Assembly (NCBI GenBank): GCA_965116495.1
Contig: OZ220696.1
Span: 2,752,001-2,816,000 of the forward strand
Direction of reading: 5' to 3'
DNA: 64,000 nt
Origin: Gammaproteobacteria bacterium
Lineage (GTDB): Bacteria; Pseudomonadota; Gammaproteobacteria; Eutrophobiales; Eutrophobiaceae
Position numbers and translations under genes: made by a program. Shown here one piece after another: positions 1 to 7,832 of this stretch. The first letter of the stretch is position 1. Every line of letters starts with the position of its first letter. Below the pieces are notes generated by a model. That model was not told where the DNA came from, did not search any database, and saw only the letters and a program-made list of their open reading frames with translations.

Positions 1-921
1 TTCGACAACATTGTCTACATGGCGACGATCCGGGTACAGGAAGACTATATCCTGGTGGAAAAGGAAGATTTGCTGCCGTTTGAAGACTGTGTGCAGTTGA
101 TCAGAAATAACCCGATGGAATGCCAGGTGGCTGAACTGGGAAAGCTGAGCAACGCCTTCACGCAACACAACATCGCGCTTAAAGACTTGTATATCAATCT
201 CGATCCGGGGAAAAATAATCCCTACCTGCTGAGACGCGGCTACAACCTGGCTGAACTTTTCCTGGTGGCAATGGTTCCCTGCATCGGAGCGGGTTTAATC
301 TTCGCGCTCTCCTTGACAATCAATGTCAAAGACCTGGAACAAGCAACCATTAAATCTCTGCCGGCCAAACCAAAAAGCATAATTCAAATTGATAAGGACC
401 TGGGCGCTGTCATGACGTTGCTTTCCGAGTTTTCAGTGTTACTGGCCTATAACCTGGAAAATATCCACGTAAAGAAGACTGCGAAAGGCTACAACACCAG
501 CGCAAGCGGTCACTATGATCAATCATTCTCGCTGGCTCGACTGAACCGGATCGCGCGGGAGTTGGAAGGCAGGTTCCACCTGCAAAAAAACCGTTGGACC
601 TTGAATTCGTCCCTGTTCAAACCAGCGGCGGGGGAGACTGTCGAATTAGCGCCGTTACCGGCCAGCTTTGAGAATTACCGGCAGTTTGCCATTTCCAGTC
701 ATGCACGATTTTCCCTTATCGGTACCAGTCAAATACAGGACGCGGCACAAGGCTGGATCGAGTTGGCCTTCGACTATCCGAACAGTTCTGCCCTGCGGCA
801 ATCAATTCAGCGACTGCAGCAAATGGCGCTGCACGGTTACATACAAGACGTCGATATTACTACCCGGAAGAATGCGGGTTGGAAAAGTCTGACGATTATC
901 ATTGAAATCACCGGAACCTGA
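1..921 (+). CDS. Type IVb pilus accessory (PilO-like) membrane protein, probably 5'-partial
   Basis: Frame is open back to base 1; single TM segment (LFLVAMVPCIGAGLIFALSL); lies upstream of the pilP/pilQ/pilR-like genes. Confidence 0.45.
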   Translation, partial: FDNIVYMATIRVQEDYILVEKEDLLPFEDCVQLIRNNPMECQVAELGKLSNAFTQHNIALKDLYINLDPGKNNPYLLRRGYNLAELFLVAMVPCIGAGLIFALSLTINVKDLEQATIKSLPAKPKSIIQIDKDLGAVMTLLSEFSVLLAYNLENIHVKKTAKGYNTSASGHYDQSFSLARLNRIARELEGRFHLQKNRWTLNSSLFKPAAGETVELAPLPASFENYRQFAISSHARFSLIGTSQIQDAAQGWIELAFDYPNSSALRQSIQRLQQMALHGYIQDVDITTRKNAGWKSLTIIIEITGT

Positions 922-922
922 T

Positions 923-1588
923 ATGAAATCAATTATACTGCTGTTATTCCTTTCAGCCTGTACCGGCCAGGTTATCGCACAACCGGATAAAGCGGGTGGC
1001 GACGCTTCCCTGACCCGGCAAAAATTACCAGCCAAAACAATAATGCCGCGGGGTGACATTCCATGTCCACACTGTACCCTTGCCGAACAGCTTGTTGTCG
1101 ACCTGATTTATTACAAACAAGTCCTCGATATTCTTGAACAAATCGACCAGCAACGAAACAAAATCAATGCCGGCTTATTACAATCCATCCATGCCGAATT
1201 GATAAAAACCAGGCCAAATCTTGCTGCCTTGTTGAAATCGAATAACAAATCCAGGACGCGCCCCGGCCCGCCGGCAAAAAAAGTAAAGAAACCGGTTAAA
1301 AAACCAGCAAAACCCGTAAAGAAAACGCCGCCCAAACAAGGTATGGAAGGATTGGCCGTCGGACACGTCAATGAAGAAAACCAGCAACTGGGCATCAAGG
1401 CCAGTGTGGTCCTGATCAGTAACGGGCGGCCGCGCTCCCTGAATGTCGGCGCTGCCATTGAACATAACCGGCGTATGTTTAAAATTCTCAAAGTCATCTA
1501 CGTCGAAGACCGGAACAATGGCAACCGACACGAAGTTCACCTGCAGGACCAAACCAGCAAACAAATCCATATTGTCCCCTGGAAATAA
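923..1588 (+). CDS. Pilus accessory lipoprotein (PilP-position protein)
   Basis: ATG at 923 gives MKSIILLLFLSAC (lipobox LSA/C); CPHC motif; Lys/Pro-rich linker; beta-rich C-terminus; stop overlaps the ATPase start. Confidence 0.5.
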   Translation: MKSIILLLFLSACTGQVIAQPDKAGGDASLTRQKLPAKTIMPRGDIPCPHCTLAEQLVVDLIYYKQVLDILEQIDQQRNKINAGLLQSIHAELIKTRPNLAALLKSNNKSRTRPGPPAKKVKKPVKKPAKPVKKTPPKQGMEGLAVGHVNEENQQLGIKASVVLISNGRPRSLNVGAAIEHNRRMFKILKVIYVEDRNNGNRHEVHLQDQTSKQIHIVPWK

Positions 1589-3198
1589 TGTTTAGCTCTC
1601 TGAGAAAGCAAAAAGCGGCGTTTCCCCTGCCGACATTCGACCAGGAAGCGCCCGGCAACTCCGTTACGGCGACACCGCTGATCACCAATTTTGAAGAGCT
1701 GGAAGATATTCAGGTCACGACGAATGCCGACATTCTCACGGAAACACAAAAGATGAACGGGGCCTGTCCCGGATTTATCGCTGAAGACGCGCAACTGTAT
1801 TGCATCGACCGCAGCGACCTGAACAAACACGAAGCCCTGGCGCTGAATCAACTGGTTAACCTCATCAGGGAGGTGCTTCATAAAGAACCTGTCATTCGCC
1901 AGACCACGCGTTCGGTATTTGAATCCTTCATTAATAAAAACAAAGAGATTTCACTGCAACAACAAACCCGGGAAAGCTCCAACCAGGTTAATGAGTTACT
2001 CGCGCAGGCCATCAACTATCATGCCACGGATATTCACCTGGAAATCAGAAATAACAAAACTACCGTGTCCCAGCGTATCTATGGCCGACTCTCAACCAGT
2101 CAATCCTTTGACAAAAGCCAGGGGATAAAAATTATCTCAGCGATCTGGAACATCTATGTTAACCAGCCATTCAGCAATGGCGACGTCGCCAAGGACGGGC
2201 GTTTTAACTTCGATTATAAAGGGCAAAAATGGCTTTGCCGGGTGTCATACGGCTATTCAAAAGTCACCGATGAACGCAGCCTGGCTATTCGGTTGCGGGA
2301 CATGAAGCATATCCCTGATATCACCACCCTCGGTTACCATGATACCCAATTACATACCTTAAAGAGAATTTCAGCCGATAAAGGCATTACGCTGATCATC
2401 GGCGCGGTCAACTCCGGCAAATCGACCACACAAACCGCTATCATGAAGACCCGACCGGCCCTGGAGAAGAATCTGGAGATATCAGACCAGATCGAAGTTG
2501 AACTGGATAATTTTGTTCAACTCCAGTTACCGATCGAAGGCACCGAAGAAATCATCCGGGAAAACAAGGAAAAACTCCGGCGTATTTCCACTCGGCACGA
2601 TGTGGATTTTATCGCCATCAACGAAATACGCGACAAGGAAACTGCTGTCATGGCCTCCTCCATGATGCTTCAGGGAACCACCGGAGTCGCATCAATTCAC
2701 GGTTCAGGCTGGGTTGACGCCATCAACCGGCTGATCTCGAAAACCGATTTGGGAATCAGCCCGGATATCCTGTTCTCCGAGTCTTTCCTGAGTTTAATCA
2801 TCGTTCAATCCCTGATTGGTGTTCTTTGCCGGAACTGCAAACTTGATACACATGTTGACCCGTTCTGGCAGGAATACTACCGGAACGGTTTCGGAGCGGA
2901 TATCAGTCAAAACGTTCGCTACCTCAACAGCCGGGGTTGTCGCGCCTGCCGGCATTCAGGAATCGAAAAACTCACCCTTGTGGCCGAATGTATTCCGATA
3001 ACAGAAGCGAACCGTCACCTGCTGATGAATACCACCAACCCCCAGGCGATGCGTGACTGGATGTACGAAAACGGCGTATTGAATATTCACCGGCATGCCT
3101 ATTCAAAGATTATCAAAGGCGAACTGGACCCGTTGCTCACCCAGCGCAAGATAGGCAATTTCAACAAAGGGAACCTGTACGATGCATGGCATCATTGA
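1588..3198 (+). CDS. Type II/IV secretion-pilus assembly ATPase (GspE/PilB/PilQ family)
   Basis: ATDIHLE motif, Walker A GAVNSGKST, Walker B INEIRD, His box ASIH, tetracysteine CRNC...CRAC. Confidence 0.9.
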   Translation: MFSSLRKQKAAFPLPTFDQEAPGNSVTATPLITNFEELEDIQVTTNADILTETQKMNGACPGFIAEDAQLYCIDRSDLNKHEALALNQLVNLIREVLHKEPVIRQTTRSVFESFINKNKEISLQQQTRESSNQVNELLAQAINYHATDIHLEIRNNKTTVSQRIYGRLSTSQSFDKSQGIKIISAIWNIYVNQPFSNGDVAKDGRFNFDYKGQKWLCRVSYGYSKVTDERSLAIRLRDMKHIPDITTLGYHDTQLHTLKRISADKGITLIIGAVNSGKSTTQTAIMKTRPALEKNLEISDQIEVELDNFVQLQLPIEGTEEIIRENKEKLRRISTRHDVDFIAINEIRDKETAVMASSMMLQGTTGVASIHGSGWVDAINRLISKTDLGISPDILFSESFLSLIIVQSLIGVLCRNCKLDTHVDPFWQEYYRNGFGADISQNVRYLNSRGCRACRHSGIEKLTLVAECIPITEANRHLLMNTTNPQAMRDWMYENGVLNIHRHAYSKIIKGELDPLLTQRKIGNFNKGNLYDAWHH

Positions 3199-4213
3199 AA
3201 ATCAATTACATAAGCTTAAATCCCTTTATCTCCGTACTCTCCTGTTCAATAATGATACCCGGGTGTACTTTTATGCAACGTTGCGGGAGTACCTGAAAAG
3301 TCATTTTCCGTTGTTGGGAGTGTTCAGCCACATTCAGCAGCAAAGCAAAAATCCGGCGCTGCAGGAAATTGCCAAACTCAGTAAATCAGCCATTCGCAAT
3401 AATCAGCCCTTCGCCACGCACTACTACCGCACCGGCCTTTTTACCGAACAGGAAAGCAACCTGTTGATACTGGGGGAACGCTATGATTGCATGGATACCA
3501 TCACCAGCCTGTTGCTGGACCAGGACAACCAGACCCCGGCACTACTGCAAATCCTGTCAAGCAGCATTCAATGGATATTCATGACGCTGGTAATCAGCGC
3601 CATGTCCATCTATACGCTGCCATACCTGCAAAACTACACCAGCGGTTATGACCTGTTTTTCGATTACGTGACGTTTATCAAAACCTGGTGGCTATACATA
3701 CTCGGCTTGTCAATCGGCGCCATGACCCTCTATCACTGGTGCTCCTTCCACCTGACCGGGCCGGTGCGTATGGTCCTGACAGCCTGCGGATTTTTCCGGG
3801 TACAGGGCATGTTGATTGAACGACGGTTCTTGAAAATCAGCAGCGCGTTGATCGCCACCCGCCTGCCCCCTGACGAATTCCTGCAGTTGATGGAGACCAC
3901 CTTTGCCAGACACAGGTTGTTCGGGCTGGCATTACAGAAAAGCAGGGCCGGACTGAAGGAGACCTCGTTGCTGCAAGTCCTCCGGGGCGTATTGTCTCCG
4001 TATACCTATGCTCACGTTCTATCCTGTTCGCCTAACCAGACCCCGGACGAAATCGCCAACGGATTCAACATGGCGGGACGTATGCTGAACATCAGGTTGA
4101 CGAAGACCATCAAGGCCTACCGGGATTTCTACACGATTTTATTTTTAGGCGTCAGCATTGCCATCACCGTCCCCTTTGCCCTGGTTTCCATGGGCATGGG
4201 AATTGATATCTGA
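3182..4213 (+). CDS. Pilus inner-membrane platform protein (GspF/PilC/PilR-like)
   Basis: Three TM segments separating two cytoplasmic domains; directly after the ATPase. Confidence 0.75.
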   Translation: MHGIIENQLHKLKSLYLRTLLFNNDTRVYFYATLREYLKSHFPLLGVFSHIQQQSKNPALQEIAKLSKSAIRNNQPFATHYYRTGLFTEQESNLLILGERYDCMDTITSLLLDQDNQTPALLQILSSSIQWIFMTLVISAMSIYTLPYLQNYTSGYDLFFDYVTFIKTWWLYILGLSIGAMTLYHWCSFHLTGPVRMVLTACGFFRVQGMLIERRFLKISSALIATRLPPDEFLQLMETTFARHRLFGLALQKSRAGLKETSLLQVLRGVLSPYTYAHVLSCSPNQTPDEIANGFNMAGRMLNIRLTKTIKAYRDFYTILFLGVSIAITVPFALVSMGMGIDI

Positions 4214-4231
4214 CCGCAGGAGGGAAATACC

Positions 4232-4675
4232 ATGAACCAGGTTGCCATTGTATTCGGATTAATCATCACGAGCGTTGTCGGTTTCGGCGCATATACCGCG
4301 CTGGCGCCTCTGGTCACCCAGTCGGAAAACCGCAATATGGCGGCAGAGATTATTAACGTGGTGAATGCCGCGTCGGAATATCGCTGGGTAAACCGCAACG
4401 AGACGGGCCTCGCCGCCGCGGATTTTGAAGATATGGTAGATAACGGCTACCTGGACTCGGAATTGTATGACGACGGGGCCGCTGAGAGCGTAATAGAAAC
4501 GGATATCACAGCCAGTCCCGGCGCGGCGACTCCCATCATCACCTACGATGCCGGCGACGCGCAAAGCTGTAACTGGCTGTTGGACCGGGCGGTAACCGGC
4601 AAGTGGGCCAACGTGGACACAGACAGCGCTACAAATGCCTGCGCCACCGCGACCCTGACCGTCGCGATAGAGTAA
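4232..4675 (+). CDS. Pilin-like protein (putative major subunit), no prepilin leader
   Basis: N-terminal hydrophobic helix then amphipathic helix, 'DMVDNGYL' motif, two C-terminal Cys; strong RBS GGAGG. Confidence 0.7.
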   Translation: MNQVAIVFGLIITSVVGFGAYTALAPLVTQSENRNMAAEIINVVNAASEYRWVNRNETGLAAADFEDMVDNGYLDSELYDDGAAESVIETDITASPGAATPIITYDAGDAQSCNWLLDRAVTGKWANVDTDSATNACATATLTVAIE

Positions 4676-4678
4676 GCC

Positions 4679-5125
4679 ATGCCGATTGCCTTATACCAGT
4701 TTGCGTTGGCCGCTGTTTTCGTCCTGGGTATAACCACGATGATACAACCCCACCGGCAGACCCGCGGCTATATGCAGACCTTGAAGGATATAGAGCTGGC
4801 CGGCATCGACTACATCGGCGCACACTGCGCCGCTCTGCCGGATACGCTGACCGACGTCCGGTTGCAGGACTCGGGCCACCTGGACGGCGGCTTCAACGGC
4901 CGGGGCGTCGCGTTCACCTGGCGCCTGGCTGATCACCCCGTCGTGACTATCAACGCCAGGGGGAATACCGACCACCTGGCGTTCCTGGCCGGACGCACGT
5001 TGGGAGAGTTTGGAGGGGACGGTTCCTACTCTTTTATCCCTGGGCGCGACGTGACTTTGTTCCGGGCGGCAAACCCCGGATACAACCTGTTTGCCTACGA
5101 TGAAAATGACTTCTCGTGTAATTAA
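4679..5125 (+). CDS. Pilin-like protein (minor subunit)
   Basis: N-terminal hydrophobic helix, 'LQDSGHL' pilin-like motif, two Cys; follows the pilin gene. Confidence 0.6.
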   Translation: MPIALYQFALAAVFVLGITTMIQPHRQTRGYMQTLKDIELAGIDYIGAHCAALPDTLTDVRLQDSGHLDGGFNGRGVAFTWRLADHPVVTINARGNTDHLAFLAGRTLGEFGGDGSYSFIPGRDVTLFRAANPGYNLFAYDENDFSCN

Positions 5126-5152
5126 CCCTGCTTTCTCGCCAGGTGGCTCGTC

Positions 5153-5794
5153 GTGAATGTTCTACCCAGCGTTTACTTCATGCTGATATTCAGCCTGTTA
5201 TCGCTGGGACTGAGTTTTCAGGTAGAGGAACGGGCGCGCTCCCTGGTACCGGACCGGGTTCAGAACAGCATCATACAACTGGCCTTGGCGCAGCACCGCT
5301 ATATTTCCGACCCGGCTAATCCCGACTTCGGCAGTTATGCCGGGGATATTGATATACTGGCGGCAAGCGGGTACCTGCCGGTCTGGGAAACGGACGCGGC
5401 GTTCACCTTCGCCAACACCACCCAGCCGGGGTTCACCATCCAATACAGCGCACAAAACAATGCCGAAGCCGGGCGCATCGCCGGGCGCCTGGGCGCGGTG
5501 GCCCAGGTCAGCGACAACGTAGTCACGGTGGGCTTTGCCGACCCCACCGACCTCACCCTGCTGGATGAGTTTGTGACGCGGGACGACAATGAGTTTGTGC
5601 TGCGCGTCGGCGATGAGATGTCCGGTACATTGAGCTTCAGCGCCGGTCTGGGTGAGGCCATTGATTTAAACCAGAACTCATTGACTGACGTGTTGCGGAT
5701 CATTGCCCGTAATCCCGTCGCCAGCGGCACCGTGGAAGCAGATATTATCGTGGGAACTACCGCCACCTTCAACGACATTCTCATCAACCCTTAA
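5153..5794 (+). CDS. PilV-like minor pilin / tip adhesin
   Basis: GTG start with AGGTGG RBS; N-terminal TM helix, 'AQHRYI...LAASGYLP' as in PilV N-domains; last gene of the operon. Confidence 0.55.
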   Translation: MNVLPSVYFMLIFSLLSLGLSFQVEERARSLVPDRVQNSIIQLALAQHRYISDPANPDFGSYAGDIDILAASGYLPVWETDAAFTFANTTQPGFTIQYSAQNNAEAGRIAGRLGAVAQVSDNVVTVGFADPTDLTLLDEFVTRDDNEFVLRVGDEMSGTLSFSAGLGEAIDLNQNSLTDVLRIIARNPVASGTVEADIIVGTTATFNDILINP

Positions 5795-5993
5795 CCCGGA
5801 AAATACAATAGTCCGGCAGGAGGAAAGACGCTACACAAGATTGAACAAAGCAACAATATCCGTGGTAGTTAAATGAATCATTCCCGTAACGCGGGATGAT
5901 CGTGTCCCTTGAGGACATGACAACAGCAACCGACCCGAGGGCTGAAATACGCCCCCGGGCGTATTCCTCTCGTGGTCCAACCACAGGAGAAAT

Positions 5994-6299
5994 ATGATGA
6001 AGATATCACTGAAATACCTGGTGATCGTTTTTGTGCTCCTTATCGTGGGCAGTCAGGCCGTAGCCAGTCCGTATTTGGCTGAGGCAAGGAAGGTGATGCT
6101 CAAGTGCGCCTTGACGGAGGTAAAGCCGCAGGTCGTTTATCGTGCATACGATAAGACCGGCAATACCACCCGCAGGAGCAGTAAAGTCGATAAGGACGAA
6201 AGCCTTGAAGACGCGTTGATACGGAGCAACCTGGGTTGCATCGTGAAGACGGTCGATTCAATGCTGACGTACAAAAAACTGGAAAAATTCGTCCAGTAG
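5994..6299 (+). CDS. Small secreted hypothetical protein
   Basis: AGGAG RBS, Sec signal ending AVA, two Cys, followed by a terminator. Confidence 0.65.
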   Translation: MMKISLKYLVIVFVLLIVGSQAVASPYLAEARKVMLKCALTEVKPQVVYRAYDKTGNTTRRSSKVDKDESLEDALIRSNLGCIVKTVDSMLTYKKLEKFVQ

Positions 6300-6320
6300 C
6301 ATCATTCGGCCTGCTGTACC

Positions 6321-6355
6321 GAAAAGCCGATCTCCGGATCGGCTTTTCTTTTTTT
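6321..6355. terminator. Intrinsic, probably bidirectional terminator
   Basis: GAAAAGCCGATC-TCCG-GATCGGCTTTTC then a T-run, between convergent genes. Confidence 0.9.
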
Positions 6356-6362
6356 ACGAATG

Positions 6363-7832
6363 CTATGTTCTTTCAACAATATTCACACAGAACTCCCGGA
6401 TGCTGTTCCGGTCTGGAGTGGGTATTCCACACGTATTGAATACCGCTTCATCAATACTTTCTATGAACGAAAGAACTTCTGTGACGCTTGGACAAGCTTC
6501 ATAGGCCTCCTGCGCTATGTGCCCCAACGTTTTCAGTGCATCAGCAGGCATTACAGGAACAGGAATCCTGGCGACGTAGCCGGCAGTAATCATATTTGAG
6601 CGCAGCAGCACGCCGCGCACCAGGTAGTTGCACAGGGAACTGTTCAGGTAACTCAATAGCCACCATCGGTCTTCTTCAGGGGGGAACAGGTTTGCATTCA
6701 CGCCGAAGGCCGAGTTGGCAGGGAGAATAGCCGCCCCGAATGATACACCCATTGATGAACAGGTGATGCCCGGAAGACCGATGTACGACTCATTCCGGAT
6801 AATGAAGTTCCCCACATTGCGTGCCACTTCTCGATAGTCATCACGCAAATACGCATCCGGTTCCGTAAAAAACCGGCGCTTGCCCGGATTCTTGTAGAAC
6901 GGTACGGTAAAACCCTTTCTTCGTGCGGGAGACAGGTGCGCCTTGTCGTTCCCGGTGGAGATCCCGGTCCGGCAGGGGAAGCGTTCGCCCAGGCGCGGCG
7001 CACTGAACAATGCGTGTACCGCCTCCGGTACTTCCACCACGAACTCGCTGCGGTCCTTGGGCGATGAGAGAAATACCTCTTCCGCCGGGTATGTTTGAAA
7101 CGCTTGAGTCCTGAGGATCCGTTCAAAGCACGTGGATGATTCCGGCCGACCTGCGACCTCAATCCTGTTCATACCCTGGGAACCCTTCTGCAAAATCAGG
7201 ATTGAGGTTCGCACATCGGCTCCCTGTTTCCTGAATAAATCGGTCGGACATAATAACAGCGAGTGAATCCGGCACTCCGACCGTATGAACCGGCGCAGAC
7301 CCTCATGTCCCCTTGCAGTCAAAAAGGAATCAAAGGTGATTAACCCGATCAGGCATCCGGGTTTTGCCACGCGGATGATCGCGTAGACAAACAAGGAGTA
7401 AAGGTTGAGGACCGCCTCCCTGCCAAAGCACAGGGCAAACCTTTTTTTATGTCTGCGCAGGTATTCGTGCTCGTGGCAGTTGTAAGGCGGGTTGGCGACG
7501 ATGATGTCGGCGTCCGGTATGCTTTTTTCGGTTGAAGGGACATCCAGTGTATCGACCACTGAAAACAGGAAATCGCGTTGCTCAAAATCAAAAAATTTGT
7601 CAGGGCCATAGTCGATAACGTCAAACCCGCACAAGCGGGCGCCGATAGGGCGAAATGGCGCCAGCAGTTCGCCGTTACCCACACAGGGGTCAAAAACCAG
7701 TTTCGGGTCCGGGTTGAGGGATAATAATTTTCGTTTGAAGAAATCGGCGACAGGTTCCGGTGTTGAGTAATAACCGGTGTCGCGCCGGTCGATGCCGGCG
7801 CTGTTGAAGACCGATTTTATGTGTCTGCCCAT
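6363..7832 (-). CDS. Orphan N6-adenine DNA methyltransferase (gamma class, TaqI/Eco57I-like)
   Basis: GYYSTP, SAM-binding FDPCVGNG, catalytic NPPY, C-terminal TRD-like region (GISTGND). Confidence 0.85.
   Translation of the reverse strand: MGRHIKSVFNSAGIDRRDTGYYSTPEPVADFFKRKLLSLNPDPKLVFDPCVGNGELLAPFRPIGARLCGFDVIDYGPDKFFDFEQRDFLFSVVDTLDVPSTEKSIPDADIIVANPPYNCHEHEYLRRHKKRFALCFGREAVLNLYSLFVYAIIRVAKPGCLIGLITFDSFLTARGHEGLRRFIRSECRIHSLLLCPTDLFRKQGADVRTSILILQKGSQGMNRIEVAGRPESSTCFERILRTQAFQTYPAEEVFLSSPKDRSEFVVEVPEAVHALFSAPRLGERFPCRTGISTGNDKAHLSPARRKGFTVPFYKNPGKRRFFTEPDAYLRDDYREVARNVGNFIIRNESYIGLPGITCSSMGVSFGAAILPANSAFGVNANLFPPEEDRWWLLSYLNSSLCNYLVRGVLLRSNMITAGYVARIPVPVMPADALKTLGHIAQEAYEACPSVTEVLSFIESIDEAVFNTCGIPTPDRNSIREFCVNIVERT

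Follow-up and report, generated by a model that had tools for sequence, protein, structure and literature searches.

Type IV pilins are defined in reviews by a class III signal, and the prepilin peptidase is treated there as core to every type IV filament (PMC4471445, PMC10191384). The closest described systems are type IVb pili. In the R64-type thin pilus, in Tfp7 of Burkholderia pseudomallei (pilN-O-P-Q-R-S-M-V) and in PAPI-1, the genes run in the order secretin, O, P, ATPase, platform and three pilin-like genes, and the R64-type prepilin has a long leader that is cut by PilU or PilD. Here we describe an operon of the same order, found in a window of 64,000 nucleotides (the whole stretch of DNA analysed; contig OZ220696.1, positions 2,752,001 to 2,816,000) that is part of the complete 4.34 Mb genome of an uncultured genus of Gammaproteobacteria, and in which all three pilins lack an encoded leader. 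Judged from sequence, the pilus is likely built without prepilin-peptidase processing, and the operon represents a derived branch within the type IVb pili and does not define a filament class of its own.

Secretin, ATPase, platform and pilins form one operon, with neither PilT nor the type IVa PilMNOP genes. An association with type IV secretion is common to this operon and the R64-type systems; its ATPase, although only about 25% identical to plasmid PilQ, groups with those proteins; and, as in Tfp7 and PAPI-1, there is no pilU in the operon (PMC3984277). However, whereas the three plasmid PilS proteins and the one annotated PilV that we inspected have leaders, the proteins in the PilS and PilV positions here have neither a leader nor Glu5, and they are not long-leader prepilins of the kind cut by PilU or PilD. 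Also unlike the R64-type loci, the operon is chromosomal and genus-wide, has no shufflon, and in most loci is followed after the pilins by a secreted repeat protein. R64-type pili further include PilM (PF07419; PDB 3eoi, 3hg9), a leaderless protein of pilin fold which we take to be an accessory component and not the major subunit; pilin 2 stands in its position with no significant sequence match to it.

The other close relatives are the toxin-coregulated pilus (TCP; TcpA, TcpB, TcpF) and CFA/III (CofA, CofB, CofJ), which provide the best structural matches of pilin 1. Like this operon, they combine a larger minor pilin with a following secreted protein that has an aromatic N-terminal motif, and they have no retraction ATPase. 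Mature TcpA also starts with Met1 (PMC10710030), but it is made with a 25-residue leader and forms a Glu5-Met1 salt bridge (PMC5207764, PMC10710030), both of which pilin 1 lacks. The subunits are also smaller here, with 147 residues in pilin 1 against about 200 in the TcpA/CofA type and 213 in pilin 3 against 423 in TcpB. Because the motor is of that lineage but the pilins lack both leader and Glu5, we regard the system as a variant of the R64-/TCP-type IVb pilus. The literature searched, which included few subscription papers, describes neither a natural major type IV pilin without a leader nor this locus.

The operon starts about 10 kb upstream with virB4, virB5, virB6, virB8, virB9 and virB10, followed by a PilL-position gene, which looks lipoprotein-like, and the secretin; after the secretin come O, P, ATPase, platform, three pilins, a protein of about 100 residues and a terminator. 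The labels PilL, PilO and PilP denote gene position only. The original prediction had allowed for a leader-bearing major pilin upstream of the window, but the 11 kb upstream hold virB and pil genes only. Within the window the features are as follows.

1..921, + strand: 3' part of the PilO-position gene (390 residues; begins 251 bases upstream of the window; named by position, no family match)
923..1588, + strand: PilP-position protein with a signal-like N-terminus (position only; no meaningful family match)
1588..3198, + strand: assembly ATPase (PilQ-type) with Walker A motif GAVNSGKS (PF00437, E 1.6e-41; groups with plasmid PilQ as against GspE/MshE)
3182..4213, + strand: inner-membrane platform protein (PilR/GspF-type; PF00482 at E 0.004, under the cut-off, with the orthologue in metagenome locus L140 above it)
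4218..4223, + strand: Shine-Dalgarno sequence AGGAGG of pilin 1 (a GGAG/GAGG-type site precedes the pilin 1 start in 24/24 loci)
4232..4675, + strand: pilin 1, likely the major pilin (PilS/TcpA/CofA-like), leaderless (147 residues, ATG start)
4679..5125, + strand: pilin 2, PilM-position pilin-like protein, leaderless (148 residues, ATG start)
5153..5794, + strand: pilin 3, likely the tip minor pilin (PilV/TcpB/CofB position), leaderless (213 residues, GTG start)
5994..6299, + strand: conserved protein of about 100 residues, encoded last in the operon, with a signal-like N-terminus (no family match)
6321..6348, + strand: 12-pair hairpin with a T run, likely the operon terminator

Starts, register and predicted fold of the pilins

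The claim from which this work set out, that three pilin-like open reading frames open almost directly with their hydrophobic helix, is borne out. The best 19-residue hydrophobic window begins at residues 4, 4 and 3 of pilins 1, 2 and 3, the first charged residue stands at positions 32, 26 and 25, and none of the three has an acidic residue in its first 24 positions. In-frame stops at 4211, 4673 and 5123 precede the starts and leave 6, 1 and 9 open codons without ATG, GTG or TTG, so that, as had been argued, no longer leader can be encoded upstream of any of them. A search for class III signals gave no match of PF07963 or TIGR02532 to the three pilins, and Pfam and NCBIfam as a whole gave no meaningful match. 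The leaderless starts are kept in homologous operons across 23 genomes of the genus: an alternative upstream start is absent for pilin 1 at 20/24 loci, for pilin 2 at 22/24 and for pilin 3 at 21/23, and where one exists there is no Gly ahead of the conserved start. A missed upstream start is ruled out by the in-frame stops together with these conserved starts, and an assembly error by identical contigs from two public runs, which match 3900-6347 exactly and without gaps (the runs may represent the source sample).

A search for homologues of pilin 1 found 164, of which 120 were listed, and counts out of 120 refer to these. The N-terminus reads [MV]NQ[VI]A in 120/120. Among the homologues of pilin 3 (n=113), 83 share the N-terminal length of the query and the remaining 30 have no visible leader. 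A profile search found pilin 1 in 22/22 other genomes of the genus; at E 1e-60, the ATPase is present in 21/22 of them and in 0/14 other genera of the family. In these other genera the pilin profile matched weakly, at E 1e-9 or worse, and the 3 matches inspected were ordinary type IVa-like pilin clusters.

More distant relatives fix the register. A profile search of 1.84 billion representatives returned 45 matches, of which 41 were fetched and 35 aligned with the query, five fragments and one protein with an unclear N-terminus being left out. The 35 comprise 11 full-length leaderless proteins, 23 with a leader ending in Gly, and one (P0142) with a degenerate leader. In an alignment-free count, from which the ambiguous P0160 was omitted, Glu occupies +39 from the residue after the Gly in 22/22 leader-bearing relatives and Pro occupies +26 in 7/22; counted from Met1, Pro26 and Glu39 are both present in 120/120 listed close homologues. 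Because the spacing to Glu39 is the same from Met1 as from the cleavage site, the initiator Met corresponds to mature residue +1. In the profile, position 11 coincides with the first residue of mature CofA and TcpA and with the ATG of the pilin in genome G002. With starts taken as called, except at loci seen, seven of the distant leaderless proteins match the register exactly and four fall short of it by about one residue; the metagenome scan yielded two loci, and most of the distant leaderless and Gln5 proteins are known without genomic context.

In the register set by Pro26 and Glu39, residue 5 of pilin 1 is Ala, so pilin 1 has neither the Glu5 nor the encodable class III leader required of type IV pilins. 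It had been suggested that in pilins 1 and 2 a Gln stands about where Glu5 would be, but the Gln of pilin 1 is at +3, with Ala at +5, and that of pilin 2 is not conserved. Of the 22 leader-bearing relatives, 12 have Glu at +5, 8 have Gln, 1 has Met and 1 has Asn; since 10/22 thus do without Glu5 while keeping a leader, retention of formyl-Met as a necessary cause of Glu5 loss is weakened.

The ratio of nonsynonymous to synonymous substitution rates (dN/dS) was computed against genome G000 over 18-19 non-independent pairs with dS near 1. It is 0.034 for residues 1-39 of pilin 1 and 0.110 for the remainder (the head), compared with 0.242 for pilin 2, 0.162 for pilin 3, 0.064 for the ATPase core and 0.075 for the ATPase, which makes residues 1-39 the most constrained part among those measured. 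Identity in pilin 1 is likewise 95% in the N-terminal helix against 70% in the head. Cys113 and Cys137 are invariant and Gly9 and Gly17 near-invariant, and residue 18 is variable (F, I, L, Y, V or A). The low dN/dS of the helix fits a polymerisation surface and not a disposable signal.

The evidence for a pilin fold comes from predicted models of pilins 1 and 3, pilin 2 being without a model, and both models show the type IV pilin fold. Each has the N-terminal hydrophobic helix of type IV pilins (20-25 residues), running into a long alpha-1, and an alpha/beta head, for whose disulfide the invariant Cys113/Cys137 pair of pilin 1 would serve. The model of pilin 1 (predicted local distance difference test score 88) has a 51-residue helix (H3-53) and resembles CofA at Z 7.6 (root-mean-square deviation 3.0, 131 aligned residues), TcpA at 6.8, PilM at 6.1, Clostridioides difficile PilA1 at 6.0 and Salmonella PilS at 5.4, although Z below 8 may, according to the comparison tool, stem from common arrangements. 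Pilins fill 9/10 top rows of this comparison, and Foldseek ranks TcpA first (probability 0.94, E 0.069). The Atlas neighbours of pilin 1 are PF08805 PilS clusters, and the protein is homologous in sequence to proteins with normal prepilin motifs. In pilin 3, residues 1-130 (H4-52) match PilA1 at Z 8.5 and CofA at Z 8.3, and residues 132-213 have low model confidence; the alignment of pilin 1 with pilin 3 begins at residue 1 (70% probability). Pilin 2 has invariant Cys50/Cys147 and weak links to pilin 1, and its link to PilM is also weak (no Pfam match to PF07419; Atlas rank 8, score 0.91, 131 shared features).

Origin of the leader loss

When 399 other genomes of the class were scored, two, G315 and G329, proved to have a related ATPase in the same gene order. 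They come from other families of Gammaproteobacteria, have the nearest ATPases among those scored, and showed no virB genes in the loci fetched. Pilin 1 of G315 and pilins 1 and 3 of G329 have Gly-ending class III leaders and Glu5, and the pilin 2-position gene is leaderless in both. Pilin 1 is homologous to its counterparts in the two genomes (E 1e-32 and 4e-19), and pilin 3 to the leader-bearing pilin 3 of G329. Because these outgroup operons keep normal leaders, the loss in pilins 1 and 3 is derived. This bears on two points of the original prediction. Homologues with normal leaders, which it had taken as grounds for refutation, do occur among outgroup relatives, and the leaderless starts are conserved in the loci of the genus; and of its three pilins only 1 and 3 are cases of derived loss, the gene in the position of pilin 2 having no leader in the outgroups either. 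The leaderless pilin 2-position gene of G329 (L195:8996-9433) has a Glu5 counted from Met1.

In a tree of the ATPases (16 rows, rooted on GspE/MshE, with a small taxon sample and one long branch flagged), seven leaderless systems and metagenome locus L140 form a 100/100 clade, which G315 and G329 join at 95/97, and plasmid PilQ falls outside this group; the ATPases together group at 100/100 with three plasmid ATPases as against GspE/MshE. The description of the subunits as 'pre-matured' pilins is closely supported by the predicted fold, by Met1 at +1 and by the absence of a leader-bearing pilin in or near the operon, but the separate filament class proposed with it gives way to a derived type IVb branch. 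In a tree of the pilin heads, from which the first 25 residues were excluded, the leaderless proteins and eight leader-bearing proteins without Glu5 form one clade (96/81) inside the relatives with Glu5; an earlier tree without outgroups placed 11/12 leaderless rows together (95/83). The approximately unbiased test neither rejects a single leader loss nor establishes one (p-AU 0.44). We infer that Glu5 became dispensable at or before the loss of the leader.

Beyond the main loci, all three pilins at the distant metagenome locus L141 are leaderless and accompanied by a secreted protein, pilin 1 of L140 bears a degenerate leader, and second, divergent copies in genomes G009 and G022 are also leaderless and belong to elements with VirB2, VirB3, VirB11 and a typical VirD4. 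Scanning a genome collection with the ATPase alignment gave 23 loci above 50% identity, all from this genus, and 49 further generic ATPase loci at 24-31%, the patterns being too narrow for outgroups. Leaderless minor pilins are not unique, since PilM and a PilV-position gene of Burkholderia ambifaria also have no leader. The latter (L142:11250-12452, plasmid NZ_CP086300.1), annotated as hypothetical, starts M-L-S-I-I-E after an in-frame stop, and thus has a Glu5-like motif, and it lies beside a normal PilS.

Proposed assembly from uncut subunits and competing explanations

Neither a prepilin peptidase nor a lytic transglycosylase follows the pilins, where the reading frame of about 100 residues and the hairpin stand instead. 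This observation, part of the original prediction, is correct, but the missing linked peptidase is weak evidence, because PAPI-1 and Tfp7 also have no pilU (PMC3984277), the leader-bearing G329 operon has no peptidase seen beside its pilins, and a PilD, the one prepilin peptidase of the genome, lies elsewhere, distant from the operon.

We consider it rather probable that the operon encodes an adhesive pilus that is made from uncut subunits and likely works for a domesticated type IV secretion system. Gene content, conserved starts, register, derived loss and purifying selection are shown by the sequences and the fold is predicted; the mechanism is what we infer. The first 25 or so residues of each subunit would act as an N-in signal anchor that inserts it into the inner membrane, leaving no cytoplasmic part for removal after insertion. 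The PilQ ATPase and PilR platform would extract the subunits and polymerise pilin 1, as the shaft, through the secretin; pilin 3 would sit at the tip, likely bearing a secreted Cys/Trp-repeat adhesin as TcpB bears TcpF, and pilin 2 would be a PilM-like accessory. Glu5 would have no replacement, and the contact that Thr2 makes with the adjacent N-terminus in other pili (PMC10710030) may here be made by the invariant Asn2 (and Gln3). The gene for the secreted repeat protein directly follows pilin 3 in 16/23 loci and, by analogy with the TcpB/TcpF arrangement and the secretion of TcpF by type IVb pili (PMC9565799), its product is likely an adhesin carried by pilin 3. The assembled pilus would likely hold the cell to a target cell for the co-encoded VirB/D4 system. 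More doubtfully, we can imagine that the lineage lost Glu5 and then the leader, that Met1, possibly formylated and uncharged, replaces the cut and methylated N-terminus, and that the whole forms a genus-wide attach-and-inject organ with a dispersed, relaxase-free VirB/D4 system and a repeat-adhesin tip.

Several points weigh against a pilus of uncut subunits serving such a system. In the systems studied, efficient assembly depends on Glu5 in the major pilin (PMC5207764), and reviews hold that pilins require processing before assembly (PMC10191384). PilD is present in 22/23 genomes of the genus, so that gene loss gives no sign of independence from it. Lys or Arg occurs within the first 25 residues of pilin 1 in 0/120 homologues, so its orientation would have to be reached without a basic residue. 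The fold scores of pilin 1 are moderate, and pilin 2 gives E 0.063 against one PilM protein and E 0.59 against the gene in the same position in G329. The repeat gene lies apart from pilin 3 in G000 and at 6 further loci, the virD4-like protein has weak family matches and no standard Walker A, and there is one relaxase match (PF03432), which is unlinked, distant and partial.

Instead of a long filament, uncut subunits could also form only a short pseudopilus in the periplasm, or a membrane complex, which would push the repeat protein and the protein of about 100 residues through the secretin. A piston of this kind would suit the absence of Glu5, the lack of a retraction ATPase (none of the five PF00437 genes of the genome is PilT), an operon that ends in secreted proteins, as type IVb pili secrete TcpF (PMC9565799), and the precedent of PilM, a leaderless pilin fold acting as an accessory membrane protein. 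We nevertheless think it unlikely: among the three pilins only pilin 1 has a strong ribosome-binding site, its helix is near-invariant while its head is more variable, its Cys pair resembles that of filament pilins, and its best structural matches are filament subunits. If instead the hydrophobic N-termini were Sec signal peptides cut by signal peptidase I to free soluble heads, the Ala23-Leu-Ala25 directly after the hydrophobic stretch of pilin 1 would offer a site. Yet the next residue is the invariant Pro26 (120/120 listed homologues), and Pro at +1 blocks signal peptidase I; there is moreover no basic n-region, a dN/dS of 0.034 is too low for a disposable signal, and the register agrees exactly with that of cleaved pilins, all of which makes this explanation highly improbable. 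Least credible, by a little, is that the chromosomal PilD cuts at internal Gly9 or Gly17, or that another, leader-bearing pilin is the true filament subunit. PilD is there to act, the two glycines are near-invariant, Gly17 is followed by Phe18 in G000, and unlinked peptidases serve PAPI-1 (PMC3984277); but both glycines lie within the predicted membrane helix, whereas prepilin peptidase cleaves on the cytoplasmic side (PMC4471445), and residue 18 varies. The class III pilins of the genome are all in three other loci, like those of type II secretion systems or the MSHA pilus, with their own ATPases, the nearest about 90 kb away.

A further alternative concerns function only: the pilus and VirB/D4 may move DNA, by uptake or chromosome transfer, and not protein. 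The virB3-virB2 pair directly upstream of recA in 15/20 loci (it is contiguous with virB4 in 4/20), the position of the G000 operon after cinA-thpR, a TrbM gene beside virD4 and the typical conjugative VirD4 of the second copies in G009 and G022 are all compatible with this, and we accord it some, though a minor, likelihood. The adjacency points either to an ancient insertion close to recA with later rearrangement or to joint regulation with recA; as a point against DNA movement, the recA neighbourhood could be that old insertion site. Four relaxase families were searched and gave no linked relaxase, with PF08751, PF07514 and PF03389 absent, and the repeat adhesin points to cell contact. Because the VirB/D4 genes are chromosomal, genus-wide and have no linked relaxase of the families searched, they more likely deliver protein than DNA, and attachment for protein delivery is the function that we prefer.

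A natural major pilin that starts at +1 would open two matters to testing: what, if anything, the leader does besides orienting the subunit, and whether the charge pair of Glu5 and the N-terminus is the sole route of docking. The pilin 1 family forms a natural series, from leader with Glu5 through leader without Glu5 and degenerate leader to no leader. Leaderless pilins escape PF07963, TIGR02532 and predictors that rely on the leader, so surveys of type IV filaments undercount them. With this locus there is also a pilus plus type IV secretion system that is chromosomally fixed across the genus.

Partner proteins and neighbouring loci

The genes of the putative partners outside the window were located in G000 as follows.

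G000:C1:4217540-4219195, - strand: secreted repeat protein (about 40 Cys; repeated W-x-P...C...TQTRT units; no Pfam match)
G000:C1:2280236-2280859 (L146:8237-8860), - strand: virB3-virB2, directly upstream of recA-recX-alaS
G000:C1:2206067-2209420 (L145): virB11, divergent virD4-like gene and TrbM gene, beside argH and kept across the genus

The repeat protein is also found at L009:17221-18927 and elsewhere, and a number of copies lie near the second loci of G009 and G022. A G-D-x-G-Y motif near its N-terminus is invariant in 13/13 aligned sequences, and its Cys/Trp repeats resemble thrombospondin type 1. The protein of about 100 residues ends the operon in 20/23 loci. VirB2-B6, VirB8-B11 and a VirD4-like protein were all found, several of the matches being weak or below cut-off, and VirB1 and VirB7 were not identified among the VirB/D4 genes; virB2 is present in 20/23 and the virD4-like gene in 23/23 genomes of the genus.

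The second pil-virB copies of G009 and G022 (L024/L030; L025/L026/L135) have a complete set of VirB2, VirB3, VirB11 and VirD4. In the G009 copy the PilL-position gene is apparently fused to VirB10, and in the G022 copy pilin 1 lies upstream of virB2 and beside cas genes, which we take to be type I-C-like. A short repeated motif, AAATTTGGGACA, and its inverse occur near the end of thpR and also in front of cinA and virB4 (L001:9657-9760), and this is possibly a regulatory or repeat element. At window position 6351, right after the terminator, both public runs have a contig that diverges, and either the hairpin is repeated elsewhere or the downstream region is variable. Past the operon, on the - strand at 6363-7832, lies an orphan adenine DNA methyltransferase (PF02384/PF07669), a 489-residue reading frame that is present in at least 3 other loci of the genus.

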